From positions 64,001-128,000 of IMG/VR virus record IMGVR_UViG_3300011242_000002: a DNA stretch of 64,000 bases. One strand, written 5' to 3'. The notes below the pieces were generated by a model, which worked only from the letters and a program-made list of their open reading frames with translations, was not told the origin of the DNA and ran no database searches. Below are positions 4,569 to 60,700 of the stretch, one piece after another. A program made the position numbers and the translations under genes. How positions within the stretch are numbered: the stretch's first letter is position 1; the number at the start of each line of letters is the position of its first letter. The stretch comes from a virus. Lineage: Duplodnaviria; Caudoviricetes.

Positions 4569-5243
4569 ATGTCTGAGAAAGAACAACGTTACGCCGGCAA
4601 ACTGGTACAACATCACAAGGATGGCGATAAGGACCTAATGCTCTGGCAATATGAGGGCACAACCCGTTTTGAATTACCCGAACGTGCTGTAGCAGGGGAA
4701 AAGGCGCTGGTAGATGGTGAATTGATATACACCTTCGAAGACGACAAGTGGGTGTTTAATGTGACGGACACTTACGTCCTGTCATCCGTTCAAAAAGAAG
4801 AAACTGATGTCGAGCTAATCACCAGTGCAGCTGATCCAGTGGCCGGGATTGATTTCTCGTCTAAACCACGTAACGAATGGACCATGGGTAACTGGATTGC
4901 CCATGTGGGCGGCAGTATCCGTTCCGACCACTTCGTAGTCTTCGGCAGTGTGATGGCGGTTGACATGATGGTGCGTCAGATCATCCGTAACGTGCTGGGG
5001 GTTAAGAAGGAAGGCATTAACCTGTCTTTCTCTGGTGGCACGGAACAGCAACGCGCATTGCTTGCCACGACCATCGCCGGCATTATGCACCCGCTTCCGA
5101 TTAACCCGGGGTATAACCTGCAGAAGTACATTGATCAGCAGGCCGAATGCTCGCTGACCGAAGAGCAGTCTTTGGTCATCATGGATGCCATCGCGCGTAG
5201 TGGCGGTATCAATATCGATTTTGTTGCAGATAAGGTAGAATAA
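4569..5243 (+). CDS. Hypothetical protein
   Basis: TAAGGA RBS; coupled to the next gene by TAATG. Confidence 0.7.
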   Translation: MSEKEQRYAGKLVQHHKDGDKDLMLWQYEGTTRFELPERAVAGEKALVDGELIYTFEDDKWVFNVTDTYVLSSVQKEETDVELITSAADPVAGIDFSSKPRNEWTMGNWIAHVGGSIRSDHFVVFGSVMAVDMMVRQIIRNVLGVKKEGINLSFSGGTEQQRALLATTIAGIMHPLPINPGYNLQKYIDQQAECSLTEEQSLVIMDAIARSGGINIDFVADKVE

Positions 5244-6886
5244 TGAAACATACCTTTAACCTGAACATCCCAGCGGATTGTGAAGACCCAGTTAAATATG
5301 TTCGCGAAGCCATTGAAAGCTTCCAAGCATCACAGGGTGAGCTTACTGGCGATATTTCCGTTAAGATCAACACGGAAAACCACGCGATTCCACAAATCGT
5401 GCGGGCTGCCATTCCAGAGATCAACGTTGAAGACGCGTATCCAAAACCAGGTGAGCCCCTGCCGTTGCGCGGCTGTATGAAACACGCGATCATCGTAGAT
5501 GACGCCCCTTATATTAGCGAAGGAAAAGAAAACGTGGCAGATCTTAACAAGGCACCAAAAGTAGATATCGTGATTAAAGACGGTGATGTTGTTGCAGTAG
5601 ACATGGTGAAAGTGTACACCCCGTTTATTCGTAAGTGGGCCGAAGACCGTAACATCATTGGCGGTGGTTCTACTACGCTGGACCAGTTCATCAAAGGCCT
5701 GACTGAGGCGGGTGAGCTCTGGACCCACATCGGTAAAGGCCAGCGTGAGCTGATGAAAGACGACATCGGTGATGTTTACGTTTGCCTGGTCAATGCCGCG
5801 GGTAACCTGGACATCAATCTGGAAGAGCATTTGACGCTGCTCGCACCAGACGATCGTCAGGCGATTACTACGCTGTATCAACGCCGTGGATTAAAGCGCT
5901 TTAGTCTGCAGGTGTTATACAACCTGGCCAGCGTGGCGAGAGCAATTGAAAACATCCTGGAGGCTGATAGCGAGTACGGTAATATTGAATTCTTCAAGAC
6001 CGACTTTTGTGAAGCCTGCGACGATGTGGTGTATACGTTAGAAACTATTGCACTGGAACAGGGTTGGTCGCTGTCTGAGTGTGTGATTGAAGCGTATGAA
6101 GATATTAAGGACAGGAAATGGTTAATGGTGTCAGGAACTTTTGTCAAGGAAAGCGACTTCACGCCTGAAATGGTTAAGGCCGCTATTGCTGACGAGACTA
6201 CCAAACCAGCCACGCGTGACTACCTCAATGAGTGGCTACGCAAAAACCCTGTTGAGTTATTGAGTAAAAGCATTGCTGAGGTGCCGACCTCAGAGGTTGT
6301 GTCTGCACCCATTCCTGTAAAAGCAGAAGTCAAAAAGCCGTTCTGGCGCGTTTGGAATGAAGCGCAGGGTAATAAAGATAACATTGCCCCGTTTGCCATT
6401 TCCGGTGAAGTTGCGCACTTGCTGAGCAATCAGAAAGATGACCAGATCGTGACCACGCTGGGTGTGTTCGGTCAGGTTAACCATAACCATGAAGTTTTCC
6501 TGATGGATATCCAGGGCGTTAAAGAGTCAATGGATCGTCTGGTGGGTAAAACCGTCGGTGAAGTTGATAACCCAAAACCGGAAGCGGGTCAGGACATCGC
6601 TGCGTGGCTTGAGCGTATCGCGACCGTTGATCAACGTAACGCAGCCGGTGTATTGGTTGATTACGCTATCAACATTTTGGGTGAGGGTTCACATGGTCCG
6701 ATCATTGAAGTGGTGGGTCTGGTAGAACCGTCGCCGCTAACCAAAGATCGTGTTGCTACCGCTGGTAATGTTTACTTTGGTATTCGTGGCGTTGTTGGTG
6801 TCAAAGAGGTCGGTGCCAAACTCAATCATGTTCAAAACCTGGTTTGCTTTGATCTGTCTACCGACAATCCACGGGAGATGAAATAA
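5243..6886 (+). CDS. MazG-like NTP pyrophosphohydrolase fused to a C-terminal prohead-protease-like domain
   Basis: IRKWAEDRNI...QFIKGLTEAGEL...KDDIGDVYV...EAYEDIKDRK..V.GTFVKESD (phage MazG-like); C-terminus GEVDNP...RIATVD...NVYFGIRG...LVCFD. Confidence 0.7.
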   Translation: MKHTFNLNIPADCEDPVKYVREAIESFQASQGELTGDISVKINTENHAIPQIVRAAIPEINVEDAYPKPGEPLPLRGCMKHAIIVDDAPYISEGKENVADLNKAPKVDIVIKDGDVVAVDMVKVYTPFIRKWAEDRNIIGGGSTTLDQFIKGLTEAGELWTHIGKGQRELMKDDIGDVYVCLVNAAGNLDINLEEHLTLLAPDDRQAITTLYQRRGLKRFSLQVLYNLASVARAIENILEADSEYGNIEFFKTDFCEACDDVVYTLETIALEQGWSLSECVIEAYEDIKDRKWLMVSGTFVKESDFTPEMVKAAIADETTKPATRDYLNEWLRKNPVELLSKSIAEVPTSEVVSAPIPVKAEVKKPFWRVWNEAQGNKDNIAPFAISGEVAHLLSNQKDDQIVTTLGVFGQVNHNHEVFLMDIQGVKESMDRLVGKTVGEVDNPKPEAGQDIAAWLERIATVDQRNAAGVLVDYAINILGEGSHGPIIEVVGLVEPSPLTKDRVATAGNVYFGIRGVVGVKEVGAKLNHVQNLVCFDLSTDNPREMK

Positions 6887-16446: not shown

Positions 16447-16477
16447 AGAGGGGTTTCGGTCCCTCTTTTTTTTTTTG
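16447..16477 (+). terminator. Intrinsic terminator
   Basis: AGAGGG...TTCG...CCCTCT followed by a long T-run. Confidence 0.8.
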
Positions 16478-16523
16478 TTACCACGATCAATTCTATACAC
16501 TTCTTTCTGGCTAAGGATACTTC

Positions 16524-17018
16524 ATGTCTGAACAAAACGTTACACAAGAACTGCTGTCGACCTACGTCGTCATTGATAACCAAGCGCACTACCCGATCGC
16601 GGTAGAATTAAAAGCTGGCGGTGACATTGCAGAGGCATTAGAGCTGTTACGTGAAGGCTATCTGGTAAAGCACAAAGATAACGTCCAGCATAAGCTTATC
16701 ATTGCGGGGATGTTTGATGCGCTGCTTGCTGAGGCACCGCACCTGAACCTCAACTATGACCGCTCGATCAAGCTCGGTACCGTCACCCTGTACTATGGGA
16801 AAACCAGCCGTTTGGCGCCGGTGACCACCAAAGATCTGTCAAAGTACTTTGAAGAACCGGTCAAAACTGACACGGTGGTGAGCGATGAGCTGGACCTCAG
16901 TGGGTTAGCTGACATTGACTTTGATGCGGTCAACCAGCGCGTTGAGCAAATGCAGGCTGGCGGCGGTGAAGTGGTCGCTGAGAGCAACGAGTGCGAAGGC
17001 GGCGGTTGCAAGATTTAA
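16524..17018 (+). CDS. Protein with an acidic linker and an NrdA-like C-terminal CxxxxCKI tail
   Basis: TAAGGA RBS; ends ...ESNECEGGGCKI. Confidence 0.75.
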   Translation: MSEQNVTQELLSTYVVIDNQAHYPIAVELKAGGDIAEALELLREGYLVKHKDNVQHKLIIAGMFDALLAEAPHLNLNYDRSIKLGTVTLYYGKTSRLAPVTTKDLSKYFEEPVKTDTVVSDELDLSGLADIDFDAVNQRVEQMQAGGGEVVAESNECEGGGCKI

Positions 17019-17060: not shown

Positions 17061-17158
17061 TTGATGATATGTAAAACTGCACATATGTGACCTGTATATA
17101 TAACCACACATTTATTGGCTAGGGTCCGTCCCTGGCCTTTATTGCACTAGGGGGTAGT

Positions 17159-18118
17159 ATGCTAGAGCTGTTGTATGGGACCGACGCCACGAACGACGCG
17201 GATAATAAAAGTGACCTGTCAGGTTATACCAACGGACAACAGGCTAACTCAATGCAGACCCATGCATTTTTAAACAACATCTTTGCTAACGGCGGGGTGC
17301 TGGCGATCTACAATAACCGGGTATTGTATCTGAAAGGCTCGACCATGGCGCGCTACCGGTTCGCTACCCCGCCGGTGTATGAGGACACGATTGATCTGAC
17401 CGCACCCATCGCCTACGACCTTAATGGTAGTGTGTTCCAATACGGCAAGTACGTGTACTTTGGCCAGTCGCGTGGTGATCAACAGCTTATCACTCGCGTT
17501 AACCTGACCAATGGTGCAGTGGTGGTCTATCCGGTGACTCCGGTCACCAAAGGCATGTTTTGCTATTACGAAGGCTACCTGTATATCACCGGTGGGTTTA
17601 TCGGCACCGCGTTGAACGACACCAAGCTGTGGCGCTTGGACGTGAGTAACCCGAGTGCCGGGTGGGTGCAGGTGGCAACCTTTGCGACCAAGCTCCCTAC
17701 CGTCATCATTGGCAGTCAGGCGTATCTTTATAATGGACGGATGCTGTTCTGCGGAGGCGGTAAGGTGGTAGCGGGTGATGTGAACAACAACGACGGCAAC
17801 ACCTACACCGTAATCCCACAGATTGATCTTGGCAACTACTCGGTGAGTTCCATCACCTCGACCATTGCCTTGCGTAATGACTACCATAACGCCACCTTTA
17901 TTAACGGCACGTATCTATCACAATACGTTTATAACCTGAGCGGGGGCAATACCAGTTACATTGGTGTGAACCTGCTGACCGGACAGGCCCGTACGTCAAA
18001 CCTGGGCAATCAGCTACCGTCGTATCACAGCCTGTTCTTCCAACAAGGGGAACTCGGGATCATCAGCGGTGGTTATGGCGGTAAAACACTCCACACGGTA
18101 CGACTCCCTAAATCATAA
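17159..18118 (+). CDS. Kelch-like beta-propeller protein, possibly virion-associated
   Basis: Kelch-like blades YLYITGG, GRMLFCGG, GIISGG; rich in G/N/T/Y. Confidence 0.55.
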   Translation: MLELLYGTDATNDADNKSDLSGYTNGQQANSMQTHAFLNNIFANGGVLAIYNNRVLYLKGSTMARYRFATPPVYEDTIDLTAPIAYDLNGSVFQYGKYVYFGQSRGDQQLITRVNLTNGAVVVYPVTPVTKGMFCYYEGYLYITGGFIGTALNDTKLWRLDVSNPSAGWVQVATFATKLPTVIIGSQAYLYNGRMLFCGGGKVVAGDVNNNDGNTYTVIPQIDLGNYSVSSITSTIALRNDYHNATFINGTYLSQYVYNLSGGNTSYIGVNLLTGQARTSNLGNQLPSYHSLFFQQGELGIISGGYGGKTLHTVRLPKS

Positions 18119-18136: not shown

Positions 18137-18724
18137 ATGGCAAAACTTTTCTGGCGCTATGCTACCATGAACGCAGGGAAATCAGCTGAGCTGATGATTG
18201 CGGCGTATAACTACGAAGAACGCGGCATGCAGCGCATCATTATAAAACCGGCAATTGACACCCGCGATGAGCACGGGAAGGTCTGTAGCCGTATTGGCCT
18301 GACAACCGATGCAATTTTGTTCCAGCCCGAAGAAGACCTGTTTGAAGTCATCTGCGTGGCGCTGCGGGACCAGCCCAAGGCCATGTGCGTCTTTGTTGAT
18401 GAAGCACAGTTCTTGACGCCTAAGCAGGTCAGGGAATTGGCGAAGGTGGTGGACGTCATTAAGCTGCCGGTGATTGCCTACGGCCTGCGCTCTGACTTTC
18501 AGGGTAATCTGTTCCCCGGCTCTGCAGCGCTGTTTGCCACAGCTAACGAACTGACAGAGGTTCGAACCATCTGCCATTGTTCGCGTCGTGCCACCCACGT
18601 CTTGCGCTACGGTGCAGACGGGAACGTGGTGAAAGAAGGGCCACAGGTCGAGGTGGGCGGTAATGACATGTACGTGGCGGTGTGTCGTAAGCATCACGCC
18701 GAAGCCATGGGGTATTACGATTAA
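18137..18724 (+). CDS. tdk: Thymidine kinase
   Basis: YATMNAGKS, KPAIDTR, VDEAQFL, YGLRSDF.G.LFPGS, ICHC...Y.AVCRKH. Confidence 0.97.
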   Translation: MAKLFWRYATMNAGKSAELMIAAYNYEERGMQRIIIKPAIDTRDEHGKVCSRIGLTTDAILFQPEEDLFEVICVALRDQPKAMCVFVDEAQFLTPKQVRELAKVVDVIKLPVIAYGLRSDFQGNLFPGSAALFATANELTEVRTICHCSRRATHVLRYGADGNVVKEGPQVEVGGNDMYVAVCRKHHAEAMGYYD

Positions 18725-54731: not shown

Positions 54732-57700
54732 TTAGTAGTTACGCTGCAGGGCGATGTTGGCGTTGTCAGCGCCAACCGGTGCGCCACCAAACTGCCGCGG
54801 TGCTTGTGGTGCTGCGGCTGCAGGCGCCGCGACTGGTGGTGCGGCTGCCTCCTTCTCAGCCATGGCTTTGTTGGTGCCCGCGATTTGCTGCAGCGCCTCA
54901 ATCATCTGATCCAGCTTGTCGTTGGTGGTCGCGGTGTTCTGCGCCGTGGTCTTCGCATGGGTGTCGTCAACGGTGACCGGTACCGGGTTAACGGCTGGCG
55001 GCGCACTCGGCGCCGGCTGCGACTGCAGGTTGCTCTTGTTCAGGGCATCTGCATCCGCGGAGGCGGCGGAGTTCGCAGCATTCGGGGTTACCGAGGTCGC
55101 GTTCTCTGTGGCCTGCGCACTTGGCCCGGTGGTCGACTGCATGGACGGTGCGCCCGCTGGCGGTGCGGCGTTGGTGGTTGAGCCCGGAGGCGGCGCCACG
55201 TTCGCGTTCTCACTGCCCGGCTGCGGTTTCGCCATTTCACCCTGCTGTTCCGCCTGCTCCTTCGCCGACTGCCCCATCATCTCTTCCATGGACGGGCCGC
55301 CATCCGAGGTGGAGCCGGTGTCACCCTTGTCCTTGCCGGAGATGATGTCATCGTACTCGCCACCGTCCAGCATCTTGCTGTACTGTGCAGCCAGCTTCTG
55401 GGTGTCTTCCAAGCCAATCGACCCACCGTTAACGATCTTACGCACGCCGGCCACGTCGCCGGCCTTCGCCCGATCGCCGATGTTCTTATTGGCCTTCCAG
55501 AAGTACAGCGCGGAGGCTGCGGCCATGGTCGGATCTTCGGCCACCTGATCCGGATCGTCCACCAGGTCGACGCCCAGGGCTTTCGAGGCCCGGGTGTAGT
55601 TCTCTTTACCCGTGAGCTGGATAAAGCCACGACCGCGGTACTTCCAGCCGTCACCCGGTTCGTTGTTCCCCATGCGGTTGCCGTAGATGCTGTTGGCAAT
55701 GGCCACCGGTCCACCCCCGGCTACCGCCGAAGCGGATTCCATGGTGGGGAAGCGACGTGGCCAAAGCTTCATCATGGTCTGCGGTTTGTAGCGTAGGTTC
55801 TCTTCTACCTGCTTAAAGCCGCCGGTCTCATGGTGGGTATTCGCCAACATGATCGCCAGTTCCTTCTTGTCGGTGATGCCGTTCTTTGCCGCTTCCCGCA
55901 GCATTGCCCGCACCCCTTCTTCGGTCCCCGGCCCCATCTTCAGCGGTTCGACTTTACCGGTGGTGTCGATCCCACCGGCACCGGAACCTGCCGCACCTTT
56001 GTTGTCGTTAAACTGACCACCACCGTAGCTGCCGTTGGTTTGCCCGGTCTTCGGATCGTACACCGTTTCCTGACGCTGAGAGCTGCGCACCAGTCCGTCG
56101 GTACCGCGTACGCCGTTTGACGTCTGCAGCCCGGTACGGGCATCTTTACGCCACTCTTTGTCGGTGGTACCGTCCTCGCTTTGCTTAAAGCCGCCTTTTA
56201 CCGGACGGGCTTCGTACTGCGCCTGCTTGGCGAGTTGCTTCAGGCTGTTGATGTGACCATCAATGATGGAAGCGTCGGTGTTGGTGGTCACCGAATCGCT
56301 CCACGGACTGTCACCAACCGTCCAGATGTTGAGGTCGTTGCGCCCGTCATTGTAGGTCTGTGCAGTCATCGCGTTGATGATGGCAAGCTTGGTCTCTGGC
56401 GGCAGCGTGTTGGCGATCATCGTCGGCTGGGAGTCCCCGACCTGGTTTTTCACCGTGGAGGCAAAGGCCAGGTACGCCGGTAAGAAGCGCCGTGAGAACC
56501 ACTTCGACCAGGAGCTGAATGCACCGATTGATAGCCAGCCATGACCAAAGGAGCTGGCCATGATGTCGAAGACTTCCTTGGTCTTGCCGGTAAACGACAC
56601 ACCCCGACCGGTAAAGGTAATGCGGTTTTGCACCACCAGTTCCAGCTGCAGGAGCACCGCCACCTTATTGACGTCAAGGTTAGGCAGACCGTAGATCTTC
56701 ATTCGGGCTGCGGTCAGGTCATCCAGCGGTTCCCCTTTCTTCGGTAGGATCTTGCCTAAGACATCCTCCACCGATACCACGGTGACCTCTTGTCCCCAGC
56801 CACCGGACAGGGTGTGTCCTTCCAGGTTGGCACCCTTCAGTTTCCCGCTCGGCGGCTTGATAGCGTCGACCACCCCTTTATCCAGGTGCTGCTGACGACT
56901 ACGGTCTTCATTACCGGTTAACATTACCGACGTCGACTTCACGTTGGCCCCGGTATCTTTGATCTGCGCCTTCAGCTTAGCAATCACGTCCTGAACCGCA
57001 CCGGTGGTTTGCTGCATGTCCATGGCCGGCTGGGTGTTAAAGAGCATGCCGTTCCAGCGGTACGGATGGTCAATGGTCGCGTCAAACTCCTGACAGCGTT
57101 TGGCCATTTCGTACTTGGTGGCATTGTCCTTTGAATCATCCAGCGACTGGAACTCGGTGCTTGGGAACAGCTGTTTGGCAACCGCCACGTGGGTTAAGAA
57201 CACCGGCTTGAAGCGTTGCACAAACCAGCCACCAAAGGACTCCACCTCATCACGGCTGTCCGGGTTCTCAATGAACGGTCGGGCCAGCTCGGCAAGCGGG
57301 AGTTTCGGATCCAGCATTGCCTTGCCGGAATCGGTCAGCTTCACGTACTTCAAGCAGGCCTGTTCCAGGGCAAAGATCTTGCCGGTGTAGTCGCCGTTGA
57401 TGGAATCCAAGCCGTACTGGTACAGACGCATCTGCTGCAGTAAGCCCGGTGACTTGATCCATTTGTAGAGCGACGAGCCAATGGCTGAGCCACCCATCGC
57501 CCCCAACGCCCCGCCGACTACGCCGCCGATAAAGGTCCCCACGACCGGTACCACGGAACCAATGGCCGCACCGGCTGCCGCACCGGCAAACCCACCGGCC
57601 ATTCCGCCGGCTGAATCCGCGACGCCCTGCATGTCCTGATCCTGCCAGGACTGGTAAGCCTCAAAACCACCAACCGCCAGCGAGCCAATGGCCGGGATAC

Positions 57701-60700
57701 GTTTGGCTAACGTGTTCGCACCGCCACGCAGTAACCAGGACGTTCTGCCCGCCATACGCCCTGGCTCACCGCGCAGCCAACGCGCACCGCGTCCCAGGGT
57801 GTTACGGGTAAGCCAGTTAGCCGCCCGACCCAGTTTACCACGCTGCGGGCGGTTACGCTCCTGACGGCGACGCAGACGCTCACGCGCGCGTTCACGACGA
57901 TCACCGCGGGTGCTGCGCTCATCACGATCCGCACCCCCCTCCTCATCGCCAGGCCCGAATGCATCATTCACCTGATCGAGCAGCTCGCTGCCGGTGCTGG
58001 CCGCGTCTTTGGCCTTAAAGATCCCACCAATTAAGCTACCCAGCGATTTCAGCCAGTCCAGCTTCAGGAAGCTTGCCAGTGCACCGAAGATGCCGAACTT
58101 GGTAAAGCCGCCAAAGAGTCCGGTAACACCAGACCAGATGCCGCTGATCAACCCGAACAGTGACGTGGGTTTATCCTTCGGCTTGCCGTCCTTGTCAACC
58201 TTTTCTTTCTCCCCCTTCTCTTTCCGCTTGCGCATCAGATCCAGCCAGGAGTTTTCCCGTACCCCGTCACCGTCGGTGTCGCCTAAGGCCTTGTCCTTCT
58301 TCTTACGGAAGAACTGCCACAGCATTTTCGCACCCTTGTAACCCAGGATTGCCGGTCCAACGGTCGCCCATTTGGTCATCGTCAGCACGCCGCTGCTGTA
58401 CAGTTTGCCCATGCCGAGCATCTTAGCGACACGCCCACCCTCAAAGGACTTCATTCGCCCGCTCAGGGTCTTGAGGAAGCCTTTACGCTCTTCTACCCCT
58501 GTGCTGAGGGCATCCGGGTTACCGGTGATCTGGGCAATGGCGGCGTCCTTGGCCGCGGCCATCTGATCGCGTGCGGAGGCGCTAACCGAGATTAACTCTT
58601 TTAACAGCGAATTGGTTTCGGTCGCCACCACTACTTCGGCAGACGGTTCTTCCGGCACATCGGCAGCCCCCGGCGGTGGTGTCAACGGTTCACGCAATCC
58701 CTGCACGGTTTCTTTCGCACGGTTGACGATATCAACGTCGGTCAGATCAGCCTTCACTTCGTCGATCCGCTCGCTAATCCCGCTGCGCAGTGACGACAGG
58801 TTCAGCGCCTGCATTTGGTGTTCCAATGAACCGATCAAGGCTTCGGCCTGCGACACCGCCGCGTTATAGGCCTCTTCGCCTAACTCTTCCTTGTTGAGGT
58901 TTTTGATCTGGCTACGAATATCGGCGATCACCGCGACGCTACGCTGCTTGACCTCTTCAATGCCTTTGCGAATATCAATCTCACTGCCGGCACGGGCGAC
59001 ACGCTTGAGCTGTTCCACCAGGGTGTCGTACTTGTCGATGGCGTTGTCAAACAGTTTGCTCAAGGCTGCCTTGGTCATGCTGATTCGCAGGCGACGGGTA
59101 GTGTCCGCGGCGGTATCACGTCCACGTCCCAGCAGGTCGTTTACCCTATCCTTGGCGTTACTGGCCACGTCACTGACCCCCAGGTCATCCAGGGTACCCT
59201 TGAGGCGATCCTTGGCCTTGTCACGCAGCTCATCGATGGCACCGGTATCCATGCGATCGGTCAGTTCACGCTTCTTCTCCCCCTCCTCGCTGTCTTCCAT
59301 GTCCGGACGGTAGTTCGGGTTAGCGATGAACTTCTTCATCATATCCCAGTACATGTCATGGTTAAAGACTTCTTTCCCGTTGACACGCTGGATGATCCCC
59401 ATCTCTTTCAGCATCGCGCGCTGACCGCCGTTGGCCAAGGCGTTGACCGACTCCTGCACGTCCGGCATATACTGCATCTGCGACTGCATGTTGGTGGCTA
59501 CCTTCTTGCGCAATTCGGCAATGGCAGCGGTGTCACCAATTTGATATTTGCCAAAGAGCTTCGCCTTTCCTTCCGCTTCCTTGGTCTCAAAGCGCTTGTG
59601 CAGGAACTCGTTGATCTCCTTGATCGTTTCCGGTTCGGCATTGACCCAGCCGGAGTCGCTCAGGTAGTTGTTGATGTTAAAGCCGTCACCGGCATCGGCA
59701 TCACGGGCAAAGCGCATCGCCAACGCAATGCGGGCATTAGGCGACAGCTCTTCTTCCGGATCGAGCATTTCCACCATGCCGTTAAAGGAGCCGGCGGCGG
59801 ACTGGAACTCGCTGCGGTTAAAGATGCTGGAGCGGATATCCGCCTTCACGCGGGCCTTGGTGGTAAAGGCACCCTGCTTATGGTTAAAGGCTTCCTCGGC
59901 CGGCGCTTTCTCACCACGCCATTCGGCCAGCAGTCGCTGCTGAACGGACAGCTGCTGGGTCAAGAGTCCCGGGATGACCTCTACCAGGGTACGTCGCTGC
60001 ATCAGGTCCCACTGGGCGGGCTGGGTCAGGTCCTTGATCCCCGGCGTGGTCACGCGGGTCTTGTTCCCCTGGGTAATCGGAATGTTAAACAGGGCGTTGT
60101 TCAACATCGGGTTCAGCACCCCTTTTTGCAAACGGGTGTACCATTTGTTTTTCGGGTCGAACTCGTTGTAGTACTCATCGAACTGACTGCGGTTACGCAA
60201 CCAACCGTTGACCAGACCCGGAGCCGACTCCGCGTAGTAGCTGAGGTTGTGCCCCATGCCGTTGGCCGTGCCGTTGCGTTCCATACGACGACGTACCAGG
60301 TTCTGCAGCAGGAACGGCATCGCCGAGGCCGCCATGTTACCGAGGGCTGCACCTTTATTACGCGCCCCGTTCATTGCCCCGGACATCTTCGCCTGCTGCC
60401 CGGCCCGCATCGCAGCGGCTAACCCGCTGGCGGTGGACGACCAGCGACTGTCGGCGTTCTGTGAGGCGTTGTCAATCAACCCGTAGAGCGAATCGTACAG
60501 GTGGTTACCGTAGCGAGAAAACGTAGACTTCAGGGCACCCGCCCCGGTGGTCTTACGCACGAGCTTTTGATGACCTTCGGACTTGACCGCTTTCTCCATC
60601 TCGGTTTTCGCCGAGTTAGCAACCAGCCCCGAGAAGGCTTCAAGCGAGCGCTTGTAGTACTGCTCCTGCATCTTGGCAATCGAGATGTCAAGCTTGTAGT

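Follow-up and report, generated by a model that had tools for sequence, protein, structure and literature searches.

A jumbo-phage protein ending in a near copy of the NrdA redox tail as a candidate diffusible shuttle for host ribonucleotide reductase

The closest described counterpart of the protein considered here is the C-terminal tail of E. coli NrdA, the large subunit of ribonucleotide reductase (RNR), an acidic flexible arm with a Cys pair (C754/C759) that places the motif C-E-[GS]-G-[AG]-C-K-I at the extreme C-terminus. To our knowledge, this tail has only three partners: the Cys pair of the NrdA active site, thioredoxin (Trx), and glutaredoxin (Grx). A 25-residue NrdA C-terminal peptide, reportedly studied by Berardi and Bushweller as an NMR complex, is said to be a substrate of E. 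coli Grx1. In yeast, Sml1 inhibits Rnr1, the RNR large subunit, by competing with its CX2C C-terminal tail. Sml1 and S. pombe Spd1, both small and disordered, target the RNR large subunit; they are inhibitors and cellular checkpoint regulators without a redox Cys pair. A separately expressed RNR large-subunit C-terminus acting in trans on RNR is known from the Neurospora UN-24 PA incompatibility domain, a 135-aa eukaryotic segment that is encoded as an allelic portion of a full-length RNR gene and forms a non-reducible toxic complex (PMC3618301). Among phage proteins, the nearest case is the uncharacterised gp48 of coliphage N4, in which a PF13876 domain is followed by the ending ...DDNCEGGGCKI; relatives in enterobacterial N4-like phages also have this domain with a Cys-pair tail.

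The window, the whole 64,000-nt stretch of DNA analysed here, encodes a 164-aa protein that resembles each of these systems in part. It shares the acidic arm and terminal motif of NrdA, but unlike NrdA it lacks the RNR catalytic barrel, is separately encoded by a phage without RNR, and carries a GGGEV motif and a helix. Its octapeptide is identical to that of N4 gp48, and N4 also lacks RNR and Trx; the two differ in that the gp48 N-terminal domain belongs to another fold family, its linker is short and without GGGEV, and N4 is a 70-kb podovirus rather than a 273-kb jumbo phage. With Sml1 and Spd1 it has no sequence relationship. An unannotated public phage family, phrog_10239, overlaps the tail module under an entry without any link to NrdA, and the window protein falls below the PHROG threshold; the jumbo-phage family of orphan tails described below is thus listed in public catalogues only as unknown. 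From its sequence, the window protein probably acts most like an NrdA tail supplied in trans.

The window protein and its C-terminal octapeptide

The window protein contains exactly two Cys, C157 and C162, and ends in ...AESNECEGGGCKI / ...GGGEVVAESNECEGGGCKI. The translated ORF (Table 1) confirms what the initial annotation had described, namely a 164-aa protein with an acidic linker, a CEGGGCKI end, and no other Cys. The folded part of the AlphaFold model is an alpha/beta domain of ~95 aa, predicted from a six-sequence alignment (AlphaFold2) to form a compact beta-beta-alpha-alpha-beta-beta arrangement over residues ~5-98, with a mean pLDDT per 10-residue block of ~82-94 over residues 11-90. 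Residues 100-164 are modelled as a low-confidence arm (pLDDT 43-53) with one short predicted helix at 134-144. This tail module is marked by a KDLSxY(F/L)xEP motif, an acidic DELDLSGLADIDFDAV stretch, the helix, and GGGEV at residues 146-150.

Table 1. Coordinates of the tail gene, its parts, and flanking features in the window
Feature	Position	Strand	Basis or remark
Intrinsic-terminator-like hairpin, 7-bp stem then 11 U	16447..16477	+	-9.5 kcal/mol, z -2.0
Shine-Dalgarno-like AAGGA, 6 nt 5' of the ATG	16513..16517	+	read from sequence
Whole ORF, stop codon included	16524..17018	+	ATG start, 164 aa (P0001)
N-domain, residues ~1-100, without Cys	16524..16823	+	AlphaFold
Disordered acidic part of the tail module, residues ~100-156	16821..16991	+	alignments A1/A2, pLDDT 43-53, profile E 1.8e-29
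Octapeptide C157-E-G-G-G-C162-K-I164, putative redox-active Cys pair	16992..17015	+	
15-bp hairpin with UUCG loop, 3 nt past the stop codon	17021..17054	+	-25.4 kcal/mol, z -3.9
Thymidine kinase	18137..18724		phrog_592, E 1e-69

The N-domain shares its fold with stand-alone uncharacterised proteins of ~105 aa from the Erwinia jumbo phages Mortimer and Special G and the Klebsiella jumbo phage FBKp24 (BFVD), with E 3e-6 and TM 0.79 for Mortimer. Foldseek against the PDB yields nothing convincing (best E 0.014, Top7), nor does a wide structure search, in which the best Z of 6.0 belongs to an archaeal ribosomal protein. Matches in the ESM Atlas do not exceed TM 0.38, and an Atlas feature search gives no usable match. 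The full protein matches no Pfam family at E≤1 and no PHROG above threshold, and phmmer against the PDB returns only a chance match (E 0.98). The view that the N-domain is unrelated to NrdA, taken in the initial annotation, stands: no Pfam family is matched, and once the tail is removed BLASTP links the window protein to neither E. coli nor viral NrdAs. Nor is the protein an RNR, as the barrel domain (PF02867/PF00317) was tested and is absent. It likewise shows no PF00085 or PF00462 match that would place it in the Trx/Grx superfamily, and its folded domain has no Cys with which to form a CxxC. Lacking Cys, the N-domain cannot itself be the redox partner. A candidate NrdA relic within this domain was rejected: TLYY, which in NrdA contains the radical-transfer tyrosines Y730/Y731, occurs at window residues 88-91, but homologs show TLNY, VLHY, or TLKY, and the resemblance is coincidental.

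E. coli K-12 NrdA (NC_000913) ends in ...SIQDDGCESGACKI / ...DDLVPSIQDDGCESGACKI, and the window CEGGGCKI equals its CESGACKI at six of eight positions in the same C-terminal register. Some bacterial NrdAs agree with the window protein at all eight, which upholds the initial description of a near copy of the NrdA tail. In 80 named Enterobacterales, the last eight residues of NrdA read CESGACKI (67), CEGGACKI (11), or CAGGACKI (2). The motif C-E-x-G-[AG]-C-K-I-stop was back-translated to a DNA pattern and searched in 201 bacterial genomes of one GTDB order, of which 53 contain one match and none contains two; the reversed-pattern control gives 0 matches in the 201 genomes. Each of the 11 matches inspected is an nrdA end, and four of these read ...CEGGGCKI (some ...EDCEGGGCKI), identical to the last eight residues of the window protein. 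Because the pattern occurs at most once per genome, is missing from the control, and coincides with nrdA in 11/11 inspected cases, the resemblance is not due to chance. In the sampled bacteria the ending was thus seen only at NrdA, and the window protein bears an authentic NrdA terminus, having the flexible C-terminal tail and redox-type Cys pair (CX4C-K-I) of that protein. Upstream of the terminus the likeness fades. With the tail profile A1 (see below), NrdA is missing from the matches among 1.84 billion proteins (E≤1e-3) and among the PDB sequences (E≤10); the resemblance is confined to ~10 residues and is not callable as homology by profile methods.

Orphan tails in phages without ribonucleotide reductase

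A pattern search at C-termini outside RNR, as proposed in the initial annotation, strengthens the idea of mimicry. When IMG/VR is scanned with the C-E-x-G-[AG]-C-K-I-stop DNA pattern, 69 contigs match; the ending belongs to an NrdA gene in 23 of them and to an orphan ORF in 46. All these ORFs were clustered together with the window protein after removal of the last 12 residues. Thus shortened, none of the 46 orphan ORFs is similar to NrdA, and they fall into at least eight N-terminal groups, among them (i) a supercluster of acidic peptides, 45-164 aa long, to which the window protein belongs, (ii) six proteins of 123-149 aa from ~70-kb contigs, including coliphage N4 gp48, (iii) a group of 40-263 aa, (iv) a group of 61-104 aa, (v) a group of 123 aa, and (vi) three singletons. 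The occurrence of the tail in at least eight unrelated contexts, together with the missing NrdA similarity, marks it as a portable module and not a decaying nrdA remnant. Phages have attached the NrdA tail to many carriers, most of which are simply acidic and disordered.

In N4, gp48 (EF056009.1 33632-34003; L166:8995-9366) consists of the PF13876 (Phage_gp49_66) domain followed by ...MLKGFLQDDNCEGGGCKI / ...FLQDDNCEGGGCKI. Its gene is the second-to-last of a rightward block, after DNA polymerase, gp40-44, and SSB, and the leftward late genes come next. Literature searches returned no paper on the function of N4 gp48 and no description of phage NrdA-tail mimics or of phage small-protein RNR inhibitors.

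Within the jumbo phages the tail defines a family of its own. The C-terminal ~55 residues of the window protein are found by tblastn in 35 Enterobacterales jumbo phages among 50,697 phage genomes, including the Erwinia pEa_SNUABM phages, Serratia PCH45, Klebsiella Miami, Yersinia fHe-Yen9-02, Salmonella SA002, and Proteus phage 10. Sequence homologs of the window N-domain occur only in SA002 and a few metagenomic proteins. In pEa_SNUABM_37 (4995-5543 of locus L001), one ORF encodes the N-domain (annotated with 108 aa) and the next, in frame with it after an intervening stop, encodes the 61-aa tail; PCH45, Miami, Yen9-02, and an Alexandravirus have a free tail ORF of 46-52 aa. Fused and split forms of one gene therefore coexist among close relatives, and the N-domain, absent from most family members and a separate ORF in a close relative, is an optional accessory. 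Some metagenomic peptides start with MSGKDLS... exactly at the N-domain/tail junction.

Profile A1, built from seven tails and run at E≤1e-3 against a 50%-identity library of 1.84 billion proteins, retrieves 39 clusters, of which about 35 are true members; the window protein scores E 1.8e-29 with this seven-member profile. Most true clusters are free peptides of 44-71 aa; in some, the module is joined to one of at least three other unrelated N-terminal regions. The initial annotation held that loss of the terminal Cys pair in homologs would speak against its proposal; all true members retain both Cys, as the third- and roughly eighth-from-last residues. Their spacing is loose (CxxxxC in most, CxxxC or CxxC in some), and the remaining sequence diverges. 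Residues G146-V150, C157, C162, K163, and I164 are invariant in alignments A1 and A2, and GGGE[VI] precedes the Cys pair in most true members, with a few variants. The family is described by a ~55-aa module, to which the window protein conforms, with an acidic D/E-rich stretch of hydrophobic spacing, a short helix, GGGE[VI], and a C-x(2-4)-C-x-[IL] end. GGGEV and the helix have no counterpart in NrdA or the other orphan groups and may mark a second interface or an additional partner. The 47-position phrog_10239 matches the tail module of several family members with E 3e-10 to 4e-3. Some of the tail peptides have odd N-termini: P0030 starts with a Cys-rich MSCNGCGNCQCGG, and P0035 and P0043 contain collagen-like stretches rich in Gly and Pro.

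The genome containing the window, 273 kb long and complete, is that of a jumbo phage; it has direct terminal repeats and a single tail gene. It encodes no RNR large subunit of class I or II, no small subunit, and no class III enzyme (PF02867, PF00268, PF13597), and neither a thioredoxin (PF00085) nor a glutaredoxin (PF00462); thymidylate synthase (ThyA) and thymidine kinase (Tk) are present. The ThyA match lies in a 407-aa open frame (57390-58532, outside the window), compared with the 266 positions of the Pfam model, so that the protein may be a fusion or be extended at its N- or C-terminus. RNR is absent also from five named relatives and an Alexandravirus. None of PF02867, PF00462, and PF00085 turns up in any of the 42 IMG/VR records that bear an orphan tail; 29 of the 42 are at least 90% complete, and many of the 42 are close relatives. 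An NrdA-like gene is present in only 8.6% of all phage records. Given this baseline, raw counts that ignore kinship, and the many near relatives, the mutual exclusion of orphan tail and RNR is suggestive but not statistically established.

A small comparison is possible among the enterobacterial N4-like phages. N4, Klebsiella PW7, Pectobacterium Possum, and Erwinia S6 carry the tail on their gp48 homologs and have no RNR; in Klebsiella HS106 the gp48 homolog stops right after the PF13876 domain, without a tail, and an RNR is present (587-aa ORF). The HS106 RNR maps to about 39 kb, and the gp48 homolog to about 71 kb. N4-like phages of Achromobacter, Pseudomonas, and Xanthomonas have neither tail nor RNR. 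A search for related loci through the downstream Kelch-like gene returned none, and the N4-like comparison is the only clade-matched control. Host nrdA (dnaF) is reportedly required for N4 replication, a finding attributed to Guinta et al. in 1986. The N4 genome has no rnr or trx gene (PMC2784036), and the phage yields ~3000 progeny per cell (PMC4496689), which by our estimate corresponds to roughly 200 Mb of DNA per cell, well above normal host demand.

A proposed electron supply to host reductase and competing explanations

The preferred reading, to which a probability of about 0.45 is given, is that the window protein would mimic the NrdA tail of the host in diffusible form, receiving electrons from host Trx/Grx and passing them on to host RNR. 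Its sole conserved functional element appears to be the acidic disordered arm ending in Cys-x4-Cys-Lys-Ile. As the phage lacks RNR, Trx, and Grx, its DNA synthesis depends on the host RNR. The free tail would be kept reduced by host thioredoxin or glutaredoxin, as the tethered NrdA tail is, and would enter the NrdA active site, where it would reduce the C225-C462 disulfide left by each turnover; once oxidised, it would leave NrdA and be recycled. Many diffusible tails beside the single tethered one could shorten the re-reduction step and raise dNTP output, which would serve a phage with a very high DNA demand. From the known partners of the tail and the reported acceptance of a free peptide by Grx1, it follows that a free tail in the cytoplasm should stay reduced by Trx/Grx, and the only obvious oxidant for it would seem to be the RNR active-site disulfide. 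More tentatively, RNR-less phages at large, from 40-kb phages and N4 to 300-kb jumbo phages, may encode free NrdA redox tails as shuttles that speed the host enzyme. These would form a previously unrecognised class of viral auxiliary metabolic factor, in which a host-mimicking motif of ~10 residues is borne on an acidic disordered carrier. The recurrence of the orphan tail in dozens of RNR-less phages suggests an undescribed phage action on host DNA-precursor synthesis.

Several observations weigh against a shuttle. The phage tail sequence is not matched to the NrdA variant of its own host, with CEGGGCKI in N4 vs CESGACKI in E. coli, and CESGACSI in Yersinia phage Yen9-02 vs CEGGACKI in Yersinia NrdA. 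GGGEV and the helix, being without an NrdA counterpart, hint at an extra partner. Lastly, a free RNR C-terminal domain is toxic in fungi and yeast and not helpful (PMC3618301).

This toxicity is at the same time a precedent for an inhibitor or competitor, the main rival though an unlikely reading, in which the free tail would sit in the active site of NrdA or be linked to NrdA, Trx, or Grx by a mixed disulfide. Such a protein might block the regeneration of host RNR or drain Trx/Grx, for example stopping host DNA synthesis or disabling a Trx-dependent process. The evidence of mimicry serves it as well as it serves a shuttle; Sml1, in its competition with the Rnr1 tail, is a further precedent, and the mutual exclusion would also be explained, as an inhibitor would harm a phage with its own class Ia RNR. 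The free UN-24 C-terminal domain, for its part, is toxic as a non-reducible complex with yeast Rnr1 (PMC3618301). However, the phages concerned have no RNR of any class, and shutting down the host enzyme would starve a phage such as N4 with its ~3000 genomes per cell. For mere blocking there would be no need to preserve two Cys at a variable distance, and Trx or Grx cannot be sequestered catalytically by a dithiol peptide in its reduced form. Redox cycling is favoured over a shape-specific blocker because both Cys are strictly kept and their spacing is loose, and a shuttle is favoured further because the carriers resemble the native tail in being acidic and disordered and the phages rely wholly on host RNR. 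The mixed company of the tail, appended as it is to several different folded domains, raises the very doubtful alternative of a recruitment tag that docks host Trx, Grx, or NrdA onto an attached or partner domain (the window N-domain, Gp49_66 in N4, and others) and so tethers a host factor to a phage complex without feeding RNR. T7 DNA polymerase, which takes host Trx as a subunit, sets a precedent. The adjacent in-frame ORFs for N-domain and tail in a close relative fit such a tag, as does the second interface suggested by the subfamily-conserved GGGEV and helix; yet the majority of members are bare peptides of 40-70 aa, lacking any domain to which a factor could be delivered, and the N-domain has neither Cys nor a recognisable function.

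The want of NrdA homology in profile searches past the last ~10 residues leaves room for a convergent identity, in which the Cys pair would have a role unrelated to RNR, such as binding a metal, signalling degradation or localisation, or forming part of a RiPP-like precursor. This is quite unlikely, given that eight residues are identical at the exact C-terminus on at least eight independent scaffolds and that in the bacterial genomes the ending was seen only at nrdA. Two Cys alone make a poor metal site. The short acidic leader followed by a Cys-containing core superficially recalls RiPP precursors, but no maturase-like gene lies among the six neighbours scanned, and the Cys-containing end is here the most conserved part. 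In RiPPs, the core is usually the variable part. Hardly credible, lastly, is a non-functional remnant of a lost nrdA or a spurious ORF. The phages lack RNR and the tail is their sole NrdA-like part, as a remnant would require, but ~35 clusters under 50% identity keep invariant Cys in intact ORFs, and the gene has its own Shine-Dalgarno sequence and hairpins on both sides. No NrdA similarity is left upstream of the tail, which moreover sits on unrelated domains far from any nrdA position, as seen from the RNR and gp48 homolog locations in HS106.

If the tails do act on host RNR, they would explain the dNTP supply of RNR-less phages with a very large DNA demand. An enzyme whose capacity normally suits a single chromosome would have to serve ~3000 N4 genomes per cell or jumbo genomes of more than 250 kb. 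The tails would then be a natural trans-acting reagent for a poorly resolved RNR step, the re-reduction of the active site by the flexible tail, and a clear case in bacterial viruses of short-linear-motif mimicry of a host enzyme. Should they inhibit instead, they would be natural lead peptides for targeting bacterial class Ia RNR. Many phage lineages show the phenomenon, and the question can be put to direct test, as N4 and E. coli K-12 carry the system and assays for NrdAB and Trx/Grx are established.

Flanking signals and neighbouring genes

Both hairpins that the initial annotation had placed around the gene are real (Table 1). The upstream one ends the preceding gene and sets the tail gene apart as its own unit. 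For the downstream one, 0 of 200 shuffles reach equal stability. It directly follows the tail-gene stop and has no U-run, and may be an RNA-stability or processing element rather than a simple terminator. Another hairpin, this one with a weak U-tract, precedes the next gene at 17117-17137. A sigma-70 scan finds no match upstream of the tail gene. A common upstream promoter motif was considered and rejected, as the sole enriched word, CACGATCA (29 copies), lies mostly within coding sequence and has no shared context.

The thymidine kinase gene is located where it had been reported, but its suggested relevance to the tail gene does not hold: the neighbourhood is not conserved in relatives, and the gene therefore carries no weight as evidence. 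The six neighbouring ORFs scanned, within about 3 kb, include no maturase-like gene, and only a Kelch-like repeat protein and the thymidine kinase are identified among them. The Kelch-like gene lies just 3' of the tail gene (17159-18118, +) and encodes a 319-aa beta-propeller (phrog_9022; PF24681 weak). In Serratia PCH45 and in the metagenomic contig L096, too, the tail gene is followed by a homologous propeller, and the gene after the tail in SA002 is annotated as a virion structural protein. This synteny of propeller and tail gene is recurrent though not universal, and the propeller is a possible candidate partner. Contig L096, from a metagenomic jumbo phage with a type-B tail fusion (P0012), additionally contains an AcrVA2-like (PF26125) gene at 1526-2809, about 1.2 kb upstream.
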